Shown here: positions 9,001 through 15,000 of the stretch, piece after piece | How the letters are laid out: each line of letters begins with the position of its first letter | How positions within the stretch are numbered: the first letter of the stretch is position 1 | From: a virus | Taxonomy: Duplodnaviria > Heunggongvirae > Uroviricota > Caudoviricetes | Virus record (IMG/VR): IMGVR_UViG_2529292985_000022 | DNA: 21,752 bases | Reading direction: 5' to 3' (one strand) | Position numbers: made by a program

Positions 9001-12000
9001 TTGAACTGACGCCGGGGTATTTTCAGATAACAGCGGTACCGCGTCTTGCGGTGTATGACCCGACGGTACAGTTTGAGTTCTGGTTTTCGGAGGCAAAAAT
9101 CGCAGACACATCTCAGGTGGAAACCTCTGCCCGTTATCTGGGGACCGGCAGTCAGTGGAGTGTATCCGGCCCGCACATTAAGCCCGGGAAGGATTTCTGG
9201 TTTTACGTGCGCAGCGTCAACCTGGTGGGGAAATCTGCTTTTGTGGAGGCCAGTGGACGGGCCAGCAATGATGCAGAAGGGTATCTGGGGCTGTTTCGGG
9301 AAAAAATAGGAAAACTGCATCTGGCTCAGGGGCTGTGGGAGCTGATAGACAACAGCCAGCTTGCGGATGAGATGGCGGAGATGAAGACCACCATCACCGA
9401 AACCCGCAATGAAATCACACAGACGGTCAGTAAAACGCTGGAGGACCAGAGCGCCACCATACAGCAGATACAGCGCGTGCAGAAGGACACAAATGATGAC
9501 CTTGCTGCACTTTACATGCTGAAGGTACAGAAAACAAAAAATGGCATACCCTATGTTGCCGGTATTGGAGCGGGGATTGAGGATACTGATGGCCAGCCCC
9601 TGAGCAACATACTGCTGCTGGCTGACCGTATTGCGATGATTAACCCGGAGGACGGCAACACCACGCCGTTATTTGTGGCGCAGGGGAATCAGTTGTTCAT
9701 GAACGATGTGTTCCTGAAGCGGCTGTTTGCGGTGAGTATCACCTCGTCCGGCAATCCCCCGACGTTTTCCCTGACGCCGGAGGGCAGGCTGACCGCAAGA
9801 AATGCTGATATCAGCGGTAACGTGAATGCGAACTCCGGGACGCTCAACAACGTCACGATTAACGAGAACTGCCGGGTTCTGGGAAAACTGTCCGCGAACC
9901 AGATTGAAGGCGATCTCGTTAAAACAGTGGGTAAGGCTTTTCCGCGGGACTCCCGGGCACCGGAGCGGTGGCCATCAGGGACCGTTACCGTCAGGATTTA
10001 TGACGATCAGCCTTTTGACCGGCAGATTGTTATTCCGGCGGTGGCATTCAGCGGCGCTAAGCATGAGAGAGAGCATACTGATATTTACTCCTCATGCCGT
10101 CTGATAGTGCGGAAAAACGGTGCTGAAATTTATAACCGTACCGCGCTGGATAATACGCTGATTTACAGTGGCGTTATTGATATGCCTGCTGGTCACGGTC
10201 ACATGACGCTGGAGTTTTCGGTATCAGCATGGCTGGTGAATAACTGGTATCCCACAGCAAGTATCAGCGATTTGCTGGTTGTGGTGATGAAGAAAGCCAC
10301 CGCAGGCATCAGTATCAGCTGAATTTTATAACCCATATACGGGCGCCAGAAATGGCGCCTTTTTTATTGCAGAAAAGCGAGAGGTAATTATGCGTAAAGT
10401 TTGTGCAGCCATTTTGTCCGCAGCCATCTGTCTGTCCGTATCCGGTGCGCCTGCATGGGCGTCTGAACATCAGTCCACACTGAGCGCGGGGTATCTTCAT
10501 GCCCGTACGAACGCTCCCGGCAGCGATAATCTGAACGGGATTAACGTGAAATACCGTTATGAGTTTACGGACGCGCTGGGGCTGATTACGTCCTTCAGTT
10601 ATGCCAATGCTGAAGATGAGAAAAAAACGCACTACAGCGATACCCGCTGGCATGAAGATTCCGTTCGTAACCGCTGGTTCAGCGTAATGGCGGGGCCGTC
10701 TGTGCGCGTGAATGAATGGTTCAGCGCGTATGCGATGGCGGGTGTGGCTTACAGCCGTGTGTCGACTTTCTCCGGGGATTATCTCCGCGTAACTGACAAC
10801 AAGGGGAAAACGCACGACGTGCTGACCGGAAGTGATGACGGTCGCCACAGCAACACGTCTCTGGCGTGGGGGGCTGGCGTGCAGTTTAACCCGACCGAAT
10901 CCGTGGCCATTGATATTGCTTATGAAGGTTCCGGCAGTGGCGACTGGCGCACTGACGGTTTCATCGTGGGTGTCGGCTATAAATTCTGATTAGCCAGGTA
11001 ACACAGTGTCATGACAGCCCGCCGGTTCAGGCGGGCTTTTTTGTGGGGTGAATATGACAGTAAAGATTTCTGGTGTACTGAAAGACGGCACAGGAAAACC
11101 GGTACAGAACTGCACAATCCAGCTGAAAGCAAAACGTAACAGTACCACGGTGGTGGTGAACACGCTGGCCTCAGAAAATCCGGATGAAGCCGGGCGTTAC
11201 AGTATGGACGTTGAGTATGGTCAGTACAGCGTTATTCTGTTGGTGGAGGGATTCCCGCCGTCACATGCCGGGACTATCACCGTGTATGAAGATTCTCAAC
11301 CCGGTACGCTGAATGATTTTCTCGGTGCTATGACTGAGGATGATGCCCGTCCGGAGGCACTGCGTCGCTTTGAACTGATGGTGGAAGAGGTGGTGCGTAA
11401 CGCAGAGGAGGCGAAGAAGAATGCCGGAGAGGCGGAGACGTCAGCGAGGAATGCCGGCATATCAGCCAGTCAGGCAGAAGAGAGCGCTGCAAATGCTGAC
11501 ACTTCAGCAGGGGATGCATCGGAGTCAGCCCGGCAGGCGGCAGAAAGTGCAGCCTCAGCAAAGCAGTCAGAGGAGGCGTCCTCGTCCTCGGCCTCTGCGG
11601 CCGCTCAAAAAGCCAGTGAGTCATTACAAAGTGCAACAGATGCTGAGTTGTCAAAAAAGACGGCAGAAAGTGCAGCCGGTAATGCAGTCAGGGATGCAAC
11701 GACCGCAACAGAAAAAGCCCGGGAGTCAGCAGAAAGCGCACAGTCAGCGGAACAAAGCAGGATAGCGGCGGAAGAGGCCGTAAACCGAATCCCCACCGTG
11801 GTGGGACCTCCCGGGCCAAAGGGGGAACCGGGGCCCGCGGGTCCTCAGGGGCCGAAGGGAGATAAAGGAGAGCGTGGCGACACCGGCCCGGCAGGGGCAA
11901 CCGGTGAACGGGGGCCGGCAGGTGATGCTGGTCCGGCAGGCCCGCAGGGGCCGAAAGGCGACAGGGGAGAGACCGGTCTGACGGGAAATGCAGGTCCACA

Positions 12001-15000
12001 GGGGGCAAAGGGAGATACGGGAGCTGCAGGCCCGGCAGGCGCACAGGGGCCAAAAGGTGACAAAGGCGATCCGGGAGTGGCTGGACCAGCAGGTCCGGCA
12101 GGTGCGCCGGGGCCGAAAGGCGATAAAGGTGATCCGGGAGTAGCAGGTCCAGCAGGTCCGGCGGGGCCACAGGGACCGAAGGGAGACATAGGAGCCTCCG
12201 GGCAAGGAACAGAACTGCTTACTACTGCCAATACATGGACTCAGGCACAAACTTTTAATGGTGGTATTAATGGCAATTTGACGGTGACCGGAAACGGCTC
12301 ATTTAACGATATTCAGATCCGTTCGGATAAACGCAACAAGCGAAATCTGGTAAAACTGGATAATGCGTTAGATCGTCTGGAGGCACTTACTGGTTATCTT
12401 TACGAGATACAGTACTCTGCCGACGGTTGGCAAACGTCGGTTGGTTTAATTGCTCAGGATGCACAAAAAGCATTGCCTGAACTGGTAACTGAAGACGCAG
12501 ACGTTATATCTGGTGAAAAACGTCTGCGTCTTAACTACAACGGCATAATTGCATTGTTAGTCGAGGGCTTTAAAACACTTCGTCATGAGATTAAAGAACT
12601 CCGGGAGAAGTAAACGACAGCTGTTGTAGTTTCTGGTTTCTACTGAATTTAAATTGTGGGGTGACACTCACCCCACGCATTCAGAAGGGGGAGATGAGAT
12701 GGGGGTAACATCGGGATGGGTAGGCTCTTCGGCTAAGAGCGAAACAGGTGAGCAGTGGATGGGAGCCGCCGGAACCAAACTGGGACTGAGTAAACCTTTT
12801 ATGATGAGCCAAATGGTTGGGCGAACTATGGGCTGTAAAATTGCAACTGAGTACTATAAATGGAAATCCTCTGACAAGGTTGATAACTGGGGCGCAGTTG
12901 GCGCTGACTGGCCTTTAGAAGAAAAAAGTAAAGGTACAATTACAAACGCCGCAAGCTGCGGATCAGGGAGGCTGGTAGGGGCTGTCGTTACACTTTCTCA
13001 CTTTTTGACGAACTCTACACCGACAGCTGCTGTTTATTTAGCCGGTGGTAAAGCAGGTAACATCACCGTAAACGTAGGTGGTGCTACACAAACCATGATT
13101 TATCAGGGCGTTGTTAGTGGGTTCCAGTATTACTGGTCAGGTTCTGTTAGTTCCGCTTTCGTGGAGGCAATGAAAAAGACGGGAGTACCCCAGGATCTAA
13201 AAATTAGTTAAATGGTAAATAAATAATTTTAAAAACTTCACGTTCTACATACCGGAGACGCCGGATATATAGGATATTGTTTTAAGTTGCCAGAGAAATT
13301 TTTCCGGACGGATGCTGATAATAATGATGTGCCAATGACGGCAGCATCATGGATGGCACTGAGTGAAGCGACAGAGCAGGCGATGTTTGCGAAGGGAGTG
13401 GAGATTAATACACGGCAGTTGCAGATGAAAGCCGAGGTTGAGGCGCTGACAGACCTGAAGGCGATCCGCAGTTATGTTGTCGGATGGCCTGCTGTCTGAA
13501 TAAAAAAACGGGACCACGACCAGTCCCGGAACCATGAGTTTTAGGGTATTAGTTTGTTATCATAGTTAGCGTGCTAAGTATGCCATGTCAGGTTGATTAG
13601 TGAAGTGATGTTGTTCGCATTTTTGCACGGCGGAGAATATTCAGATTTTTGGAAATCCATATTTTTCCCGTGCGCGATTACATGCTTCATTTACGATGCT
13701 ATTTTCGCCGGACATTGCGAATTCCCTGCATGTGGACGGTTTTTGTAAACAGAGCAATATGCGTTTTCTCCGGGGGGGGCCGGCAAGAGCGCCACATCGG
13801 GGATTTTTCTGATTGGTGCCGCGCATACAGCGATGAAAAGGAGATATTTGCTCAGTGAGACTGACCGAAACCTTTCCGCCAGCATCGTCAGCTTCTGCCC
13901 AGTAAAAAGAGACGCGGAAAATGCACAACAGGCACCACACGTCATGCATGGATTCAGATTGCTCATAATTCACCAGTACAGCTATAAATCGTAAAGAGAA
14001 CAGCGGTACATCGTATGTAAGAACGTACCGCGGCTGGCTGGTGAACTTCCGATAGTGCGAGTATTGAATGATTTCCATCCGTTACAGATTTTACGTGCTA
14101 ATTAGTGAACAAACCACTCGTCAGCAGACTCCCAGGTATCTTTCAGAGTTTCCTGAACAAAAGTTTTAGCTGAATCTTTATCGGCGGTGCGCGTAACAGA
14201 AAGGCCATCGTTGCTGGTAGCTTTTACGATCACCTCTACATCGTCATAACGTTTACTGATGCGTCGGGTTAATTCTTCCTTTAACGCATCCACAGCACCG
14301 GTTGGCATTTTAGTCATTTTTTCTTTGGCTATGCAGATTTCAATACGCATAAAAGTCCCTCTACACTGTGTTTGTATACAGTATCAATTTTAACTGTATG
14401 GATAAACAGTATCAAGGGTGAAGGAAAGTGATTTTTTGGGGCATGCATGGGGCAAAAATATTTGTTGTGGGGCATTTTGGGGCATGATTGGGACACTTTG
14501 TTACATATGAACTTTGCCGATTTTTATATGACATGGAAATACAACGCTTTGATTCTTCTAAATAAAAAACATGCTCTTGGGCGTTCTTTAGTGATTTTTA
14601 AAAATTCCGTATCACGCAGTTAAAGTGGCGGGCATACTCTTCAAGGCTGGTGATCCCCAACCGCACCCATTTAGGATGCGACCATTGCGGTAGACCGATG
14701 TAAATCATAACGCGTGAAGGATCTCTTCCACGCTACGCACACGGGCGATGCGCGGGTAGATATGATTAATGCTGTTATTGTGTTGCTCGGCGCTGGCGGC
14801 ACTACAGGCGTCTTCGGCAATCACCAGATTAAAGCCAAGTTCCCAGGCATTGCGGGCGGTGGATTCAACACCGATATTGGTCGAGATCCCACATAACACT
14901 ATTGTATCGATACCTCGGCGGCGCAGTTGCAACTCCAGATCCGTACCGTAAAACGCACCCCACTGACGTTTGATGATTTCGATATCACTGTCAGTTGCAC

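Follow-up and report, generated by a model that had tools for sequence, protein, structure and literature searches.

A collagen-shafted lambdoid side tail fibre with a probable T2/S16-type two-component receptor-binding tip

The IMG/VR record IMGVR_UViG_2529292985_000022, a 21,752-nt stretch of Caudoviricetes DNA referred to here as the window, contains, inserted beside yecD/aspS, the right-hand end of a lambdoid prophage. We examined the 519-aa side tail fibre (Stf) encoded in the window together with the small gene that follows it. The protein is probably a trimeric lambdoid side tail fibre that has gained, as a cassette, a two-component receptor-binding tip of the type found in phages T2 and S16. 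Because only 38 near-invariant residues lie beyond its collagen-like shaft and a conserved gp38-like gene comes directly next, the fibre most likely carries a separate receptor-binding protein rather than being a self-sufficient receptor binder. In fibres of this type, receptor binding probably falls to an overlooked adhesin of 170 aa. Coordinates of all features are collected in Table 1.

Fibre tip and adhesin match both partners of one crystal complex

The fibre tip and the adhesin match two different chains of a single crystal complex, (gp37)3-gp38 of phage S16 (PDB 6F45), which makes a T2/S16-like mechanism likely. Residues 405-518 of the fibre match the gp37 tip (chain A, E 1.4e-13), and residues 1-44 of the adhesin match gp38 (chain D residues 1-45, E 2.2e-3). 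The alignment of fibre and gp37 starts N-terminal to the SSDRRIK motif, with fibre residues 405-423 already paired, and then sets IRSDKRNK of the fibre (IR-S424-DKRN-K429) against VSSDRRIK of S16 gp37 (VS-S-DRRI-K). PHROG matches of the fibre C-terminus are to the C-termini of T-even proteins annotated as 'long tail fiber distal subunit'.

The C-terminal part of the fibre contains a Peptidase_S74 domain (PF13884, residues 424-479, 4.8e-12; score 46.4 bits, threshold 22), whose profile position 1 coincides with Ser424 (codon 12323..12325). Ser424 and Lys429 (codon 12338..12340) are invariant in both homologue alignments (10 and 12 sequences), and they form a predicted catalytic dyad in which the lysine comes five residues after the serine. 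A weak alignment with MYRF (7dc3_A, E 0.21) sets the same two residues on the A-x4-K positions of that protein. Cleavage at Ser424, if it occurs as predicted, would leave a 423-aa fibre with 38 residues beyond the collagen and would release 96 residues. The original prediction, made from the sequence alone, had likened this C-terminus to endosialidase-type intramolecular chaperones, and the above-threshold Peptidase_S74 match in C-terminal position bears this out. The hidden Markov model search that it proposed as a check matched the lambda-Stf N-terminus, the collagen and Peptidase_S74. The last 140 residues, which comprise tip and chaperone, are 91-98% identical among fibres that are ~50-63% identical overall. 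This conservation of the tip, together with the near-invariant N-terminus and variable remainder of the adhesin (below), supports a putative 'socket and plug' arrangement.

A spacer of 85 nt separates the fibre stop codon from the adhesin gene, whose ATG at 12699 is preceded by a Shine-Dalgarno sequence, AAGGGGGAG, 5 nt upstream. The product has a Gp38_N domain (PF21721, 9.3e-20, 70.8 bits against a cut-off of 25) and aligns along its entire length with phrog_1121, 'tail fiber adhesin' (6e-60); the PGAP name for it in E. coli genomes is 'receptor recognizing protein Gp38'. Its exact sequence is found on at least 1000 contigs. When 1.84 billion proteins were searched, ~99 cluster representatives matched the adhesin at E<=1e-3, and many of these are 160-180 aa long. 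Matches of 250-300 aa align only across the first ~50 residues, as T-even gp38 would. Residues 1-41 are mostly invariant in the family, W7 and W20 among them, whereas residues 44-170 are variable, and overall identity with the protein of the window falls as low as 35%. As a monomer, residues 1-43 have low pLDDT, which is expected because this part would fold onto the fibre. Fibre and adhesin genes are syntenic in all loci examined, in lambdoid prophages as well as in the Shiga toxin 2 (Stx2) phages P13374, phi191 and Ss-VASD.

Giant Big_13/RTX-type proteins (P0175, 4481 aa; P0233, 2972 aa) also gave many weak repeated matches to the adhesin's C-terminal domain (residues 41-134). Such matches may hint at an Ig-like fold or may reflect composition; the hint from P0175 was too weak and composition-dependent, and we made no use of it.

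Proposed mechanism

We propose that the PfN domain anchors the fibre to the tail and that the shaft would consist of the 116-aa coiled coil followed by the 45-triplet collagen triple helix. The C-terminal 96-aa chaperone (Peptidase_S74) would trimerise, setting the register of the three chains from the C-terminal end, and would cleave itself at Ser424 by means of the Ser424/Lys429 dyad. Cleavage would bare the 38-residue tip, and a single 170-aa adhesin could then dock onto the fibre trimer (3:1) through its invariant N-terminal ~43 residues. The variable C-terminal β-sandwich of the adhesin would bind the host receptor.

For the tip, the models are T-even. The S16 gp37 trimer bears a single gp38, whose N-terminal helices dock via conserved tryptophans (PMC6851490, section 2.7), and in T2 and T6 the gp37 C-terminus is cut off by proteolysis, after which gp38 caps the fibre (Trojet et al. 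2011, PMC3157838). For the shaft, Ghosh et al. 2012 (PLoS One 7:e37872) describe EPclA, the 116-aa PCoil of which is α-helical and forms a trimerising coiled coil. In the same study, a Col-PfC fragment of EPclA forms a true triple helix, as judged by circular dichroism and electron microscopy, with nucleation by the C-terminal trimerisation domain.

Several observations weigh against the proposed mechanism. The match between the adhesin and S16 gp38 spans 44 residues only, at E = 2e-3. The third docking tryptophan of S16 gp38 (W35) is Met35 here, W7 and W20 being conserved, and Pfam finds no polyglycine-sandwich domain (PF05268), the hallmark of T-even gp38, in the adhesin. An AlphaFold2 monomer model of fibre residues 380-519 reached a pLDDT of 39.4, from an 11-sequence alignment that was >90% identical and hence uninformative. 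Furthermore, the locus is decaying in several strains, with frameshifted fibre alleles and a stop codon in the gpJ gene, and literature searches gave no cleavage, binding or receptor data for this fibre or its close relatives.

Architecture of the fibre

The fibre gene is an intact open reading frame (ORF). An in-frame GTG is also present at 11048; homologues begin at ATG 11054. The exact 519-aa sequence had no entry in the protein collection searched, and the closest relative is the CP026807.1 locus, which differs by 2 nt. With 229 bits against a cut-off of 26.6, the match to PF08400 marks the N-terminus as a lambda Stf-type domain, and over residues 1-117 the fibre is identical to lambda orf-401 at 107 of 117 positions, followed by only 14 of 43. 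The N-terminal ~110 aa were thus rightly described as lambda Stf-like in the original prediction. Residues 1-94 match the chain 'Tail fiber protein' of PDB 9e7m/9mgh (3.9e-52), itself identical to residues 1-94 of lambda orf-401. The gene also has the position of a lambda-type stf, 3' of J and lom and colinear with J-lom-stf of phage 434. Similarity to lambda stops at residue 117, and neither a lambda-like distal part nor a separate Tfa was found; Pfam gave no match to Phage_fiber_2 or Phage_fiber_C (PF06820) in the fibre protein.

The Ala/Ser/Glu-rich region that follows is encoded by DNA 93% identical to phage 434 Stf. Beyond it, we counted 45 uninterrupted Gly-X-Y triplets, close to the ~44 first estimated. 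Pro accounts for 28% of the X and Y positions and charged residues for 30%, and the collagen part would be ~39 nm long if fully helical.

At two loci, RefSeq/PGAP splits the gene (L001 11001..12560 in NZ_CP147059.1; L010 1346..2905 in NZ_CP042892.1) into a C-terminally truncated pseudogene and a separate 109-aa 'tail fiber domain-containing protein'. Gene decay can be discarded as the cause, since the DNA translates to an intact 519-aa ORF; the split is an annotation artefact of a mosaic gene.

Mosaic origin and the shared cassette

Mosaic junctions were determined by BLAST comparison with phage 434, P13374, lambda and prophage loci. Positions 10305..12066 of the window are colinear with J-lom-stf of phage 434 (93.3% DNA identity), and positions 11990..13330 with the 3' end of ORF65 plus ORF66 of the Stx2a phage P13374 (94.1%). 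DNA similarity to lambda is limited to 10862..11403. Because both parental similarities overlap in 11990..12066, we place the crossover there. The junction thus falls inside collagen-coding DNA and not at 12209, the position of a marked drop in GC content. The collagen DNA has a GC fraction of 0.70, compared with 0.43 for tip plus chaperone; that of the adhesin gene is 0.48, and the window as a whole has 0.54. Module exchange had originally been read from this drop. The drop from 0.70 to 0.43 is real, and exchange is evident from the BLAST comparison, but the two do not coincide; the drop at 12209 is largely an effect of Gly/Pro codons.

The segment from the crossover rightward recurs in podovirus-type prophages. 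L016 and L018 share window 11990/12020..13739 at 98.2-98.4%, with SU10_adaptor and Phage_Tail_Tip genes as neighbours of the cassette. One genome, CP014197.1, holds two copies, one in the lambdoid prophage L017 and one in the podovirus-type L016; these have 1721 bp in common at 98.7%, which suggests recent exchange between co-resident prophages. At the megablast level, tip-plus-adhesin DNA was found in 70 of 5426 complete E. coli genomes. A preprint on phi24B reports that a short-tailed Stx phage and a lambdoid phage similarly have a different module of collagen shaft and C-terminal domain in common.

At its downstream end, the cassette includes the last 70 residues of a DUF4376 protein. The intact gene encodes 222 aa in E. 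coli UTAK-6 (L009 3460..4128), and relative to L009 the window is short of ~410 nt of it. The N-terminal half of the UTAK-6 protein, the part absent from the window remnant, matches phrog_136, 'tail fiber assembly protein'; only through the N-terminus of this intact homologue would the remnant be tied to tail-fibre assembly. We also considered the remnant as a lambda-type Tfa and rejected this, as BLASTP against lambda Tfa was not significant (E 0.41). The original prediction had noted only a doubtful Tfa-like remnant downstream of the fibre. A remnant does exist, but the intact 170-aa Gp38_N gene in front of it had been overlooked.

In UTAK-6, the L009 locus carries an intact three-gene cassette, consisting of fibre, gp38-like adhesin and 222-aa DUF4376 protein.

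Collagen repeat and length alleles

The collagen DNA had been said to contain a near-identical ~50-bp duplication (12055..12104 versus 12115..12164). We found no such identity: at this offset of 60, only 15 of 50 bases match. At an offset of 63, by comparison, 48 of 60 bases are identical, and TRF reports an imperfect tandem repeat with this unit length (Table 1). No exact repeat within the collagen DNA is longer than 14-15 nt, and in the protein of this region one 19-residue peptide is present twice, identically.

Length variation between strains, which had been anticipated, is clearly present. Nine database alleles, with N-terminal 250 aa and C-terminal 134 aa identical or nearly so to the window protein, have 38, 34, 36, 34, 33, 28, 28, 27 and 9 triplets, compared to 45 here. 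All of them are shorter than the window copy, the positions of the deletions differ among them, and several come from megabase contigs. Allele P0001 (498 aa) is missing triplets 34-40, exactly one 63-nt unit, and L013 has a 324-nt in-frame deletion that yields a 411-aa allele (also P0016). Other changes disrupt the gene: 152 nt are deleted out of frame in Shigella boydii Sb227 and in two other genomes, and the fibre gene of L017 has two deletions, of 99 nt and 1 nt. Because the variation includes frame-destroying deletions and all variants are shorter, neutral erosion in cryptic prophages accounts for it no less well than adaptive tuning does.

Four E. coli lambdoid prophages (L006, L007, L008 and L009) share tip, chaperone and adhesin with the window but have no coiled coil. 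In these, the collagen starts directly after PfN (aa 129-136) and comprises 56-88 triplets in two or three blocks. The fibre shaft is highly interchangeable.

State of the prophage and alternative explanations

One in-frame stop codon (8196..8198, 'RAGL*VIKT') breaks the otherwise continuous 1157-codon reading frame of the gpJ gene, and hence the prophage is probably defective and unable to make infectious particles. Given this, the cassette in the window is probably a recombination reservoir and not a working organelle, one from which the intact fibre and adhesin genes could pass to other phages. Elements of the IS66, IS110 and IS1 families of insertion sequences (IS) lie within the window, and host or cargo genes and IS elements follow 3' of the 70-aa ORF. 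The layout is shared with S. boydii Sb227 (99.1-99.3%) and with CP026807.1 (99.9%), which has a 519-aa fibre ORF.

These signs of decay raise the question of whether the whole locus is a relic devoid of present function, with collagen length changes that reflect neutral slippage or recombination deletion in cryptic prophages. The gpJ stop, the IS elements and the truncated DUF4376 gene all point in this direction, as do the uniformly shorter alleles, the out-of-frame deletion in Sb227 and two other genomes and the 1-nt deletion in L017; moreover, repeats with a 9-nt period give in-frame outcomes with or without selection. However, both ORFs, that of the fibre and that of the adhesin, remain intact in the window and in CP026807.1, the parts flanking the collagen (250 and 134 aa) are identical or nearly so across nine alleles, and the cassette is present at 94-98% identity in isolated Stx2 phages and other prophages. 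We therefore regard a relic as an unlikely explanation for the locus. It concerns the state of the window copy and, as such, is compatible with the role proposed for the cassette, namely that of a T2/S16-type tip.

A self-sufficient fibre would have a chaperone that replaces Tfa and a distal end that binds the receptor itself, and the downstream genes would be irrelevant remnants. A Peptidase_S74 domain is indeed present and an intact Tfa is not, and chaperone-bearing fibres with their own receptor-binding tip exist, for example the phage T5 lateral tail fibre (PMC11990801). Nevertheless, collagen and cleavage serine are separated by only 38 residues, and these are near-invariant in divergent fibres, the opposite of what one expects of a receptor-binding domain. 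The Gp38_N gene at 12699, in turn, is intact, conserved and equipped with its own Shine-Dalgarno sequence, and it accompanies the tip in every context examined. These data make self-sufficiency unlikely. Much harder still to credit is that the protein is no phage part at all but a bacterial cell-surface collagen-like adhesin of the Scl/Lcl type. NCBIfam does return matches to SclB, Lcl and SclA, and one record is named 'collagen-like surface-anchored protein SclE'; but the scores are far under the cut-offs (105 versus 325, 75 versus 500 and 66 versus 400 bits, respectively), and the matches are confined to the collagen and low-complexity parts. The gene sits 3' of J, between lom and tail-fibre accessory genes, and encodes a lambda Stf N-terminal domain, which has been solved in the lambda tail.

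Relation to known systems

The architecture of the fibre corresponds to that of EPclD. Table 3 of Ghosh et al. 2012 lists EPclD with 519 aa, a PCoil of 116 and a Col of 135 in S. dysenteriae (SDB_03138) and E. coli EC4100B; the window fibre has the same PfN, PCoil length, single Col, non-PfC C-terminus ('PfC2') and total length. That paper also lists a 411-aa variant with a 27-aa collagen in S. boydii BS512, the type recovered here as P0016 and L013. The experiments in the paper concern only EPclA and EPclB; the terms S74, endosialidase and intramolecular chaperone are absent from it, and no mention of a downstream adhesin was found in the parts consulted.

Phage 434 provides the closest match on the left. 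Between the end of J and mid-collagen, lom included, its DNA is 93% identical to that of the window, but its EPclA-type Stf (PfN-PCoil-Col-PfC) has a Phage_fiber_C end and is accompanied by a separate gene for a Tfa chaperone, where the window has an intramolecular chaperone and a gp38-like adhesin. On the right, ORF65 and ORF66 ('tail fibre adhesine') of P13374 and phi191 have the same collagen 3' part, tip, Peptidase_S74 domain and adhesin as the window. The ORF65 fibre of P13374, a phage isolated from the O104:H4 outbreak strain, differs in being 680 aa long, in beginning with another N-terminus, in carrying a Phage_fiber_2 repeat as well as two additional collagen blocks, and in serving a short-tailed virion. 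Grande et al. 2014 (BMC Genomics 15:574) described this region as the tail-fibre sequence by which the Stx2 phages of enteroaggregative-haemorrhagic E. coli stand apart; they recorded Collagen and Peptidase_S74 motifs in it and suggested that it plays a part in tropism.

With S16, T2 and T6, the locus has in common the order of fibre gene and adhesin gene, the homology of gp37 tip and chaperone, the S-D-x-R-x-K motif and the homology of the gp38 docking domain. The differences lie elsewhere. S16, T2 and T6 are T-even myoviruses, whereas here the virus is a temperate lambdoid siphovirus with relatives in Stx podoviruses; the shaft is collagen here and a β-helix there; and the adhesin here has 170 aa and a small β-sandwich, in contrast to a β-helix plus polyglycine sandwich there. 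Endosialidase-type chaperones, such as those of K1F endosialidase and the T5 lateral tail fibre, share with the window chaperone the Pfam family, the C-terminal position and a Ser/Lys dyad five apart. In K1F and T5, the chaperone folds a β-helical stalk or tip that binds the receptor itself. Unlike these, the window chaperone comes directly behind a collagen helix and a 38-aa tip.

At the gene level, little of this biology is new, since the architecture was catalogued in 2012 (Ghosh et al.) and the module was noted in O104:H4-type Stx2 phages in 2014 (Grande et al.). The database names 'peptidase S74', 'receptor recognizing protein Gp38' and 'tail fibre adhesine' already reflect both homologies. 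Literature searches returned no account of a lambdoid side tail fibre that bears a gp38-type adhesin or a two-component tip of the T2/S16 type, and no study of the short adhesin subfamily or its receptor. This is a characterisation gap and not a new kind of system.

The tip cassette occurs in lambdoid prophages of siphovirus type as well as in Stx2 phages of podovirus type, among them the phage type of the O104:H4 outbreak, and has a homologue in T-even myoviruses. A broader reading is that a T-even style socket-and-plug tip forms a portable cassette that crosses virion morphotypes, with collagen repeats as a universal left-hand recombination linker; we judge the evidence for this evenly balanced. 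It would include the equally uncertain proposal that the short 170-aa adhesin subfamily has a β-sandwich domain with no solved structural relative. If true, the small adhesin, and not the fibre, would determine tropism in these Stx phages. A cryptic lambdoid prophage of Shigella and E. coli shares its tip cassette, at 94-98% identity, with short-tailed Stx2-converting phages, which bears on how host range, and hence the spread of Shiga-toxin genes, may be reshuffled between resident prophages.

Other features of the window

Table 1. Positions of the fibre locus and other features in the 21,752-nt window
Feature	Position	Strand	Basis or remark
Tape measure gene	1083..4244		
gpJ gene	6849..10322		
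lom gene	10390..10989		
Terminator-like hairpin and T-run	11016..11037	+	3' of lom, just 5' of fibre gene; stem of 8 pairs, 7 of them GC; tail rich in T
Side tail fibre gene, 519 aa, PfN-PCoil-Col-tip-chaperone (EPclD-type)	11054..12613	+	Intact ORF
PfN (phage_tail_N), aa 1-133, lambdoid tail attachment	11054..11452	+	Pfam PF08400, 1.7e-68
Ala/Ser/Glu-rich low-complexity region, putative 'PCoil' trimeric coiled coil, aa 134-250	11453..11803	+	Sequence; likeness to EPclA PCoil
Collagen-like domain, putative triple helix, aa 251-385, 45 unbroken Gly-X-Y triplets	11804..12208	+	Pfam PF01391 Collagen, 5.3e-21
Crossover zone, collagen DNA common to 434-like Stf and P13374-like Stx2 podovirus fibre	11990..12066	+	Overlap of similarities
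Portable cassette: collagen 3' part, tip, chaperone, adhesin, DUF4376 remnant	11990..13739	+	Shared with podovirus-type prophages
Imperfect tandem repeat, 63 nt (21 aa, 7 triplets), 2.7 copies	12026..12192	+	TRF, 79% matches
Fibre tip after predicted cleavage, 38 aa, aa 386-423; predicted adhesin docking base	12209..12322	+	Alignment, conservation
Intramolecular chaperone/Peptidase_S74, aa 424-519	12323..12610	+	PF13884, S16 gp37 alignment
gp38-like tail-fibre adhesin gene, 170 aa, intact	12699..13211	+	Gp38_N, phrog_1121
Adhesin N-terminal docking domain, aa 1-43, predicted	12699..12827	+	Near-invariance in family
Adhesin C-terminal variable β-sandwich, aa 44-170, predicted receptor-binding part	12828..13208	+	
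DUF4376 gene 3' remnant, 70 aa	13287..13499	+	PF14301, 6.9e-7, profile positions 55-99 only

In phage 434, a terminator is annotated at the position that corresponds to the hairpin between lom and the fibre gene. At the right end of the prophage are an ORF for a YkgJ-family-like cysteine-cluster protein (13691..13966, - strand) and a DinI-like gene (14102..14350, - strand), a pair that recurs beside the cassette in several E. coli and Shigella prophages. A yecD-like isochorismatase-family gene is split by an IS110-family transposase gene (14705..15040, 15079..16275 and 16466..16753, all on the - strand), an arrangement also seen in S. boydii Sb227 (CP000036.1, L014).

Near opposite ends of the window lie an IS66 TnpB-like ORF (231..917, - strand) and an IS1 transposase ORF (20853..21284, - strand), which probably account for the thousands of plasmid matches obtained when the whole window was used in BLAST. 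Opposite-strand ORFs run across the collagen DNA, for example 11688..12170 and 11845..12231 (both on the - strand), and we take these to be by-products of its G+C-rich 9-nt periodicity.

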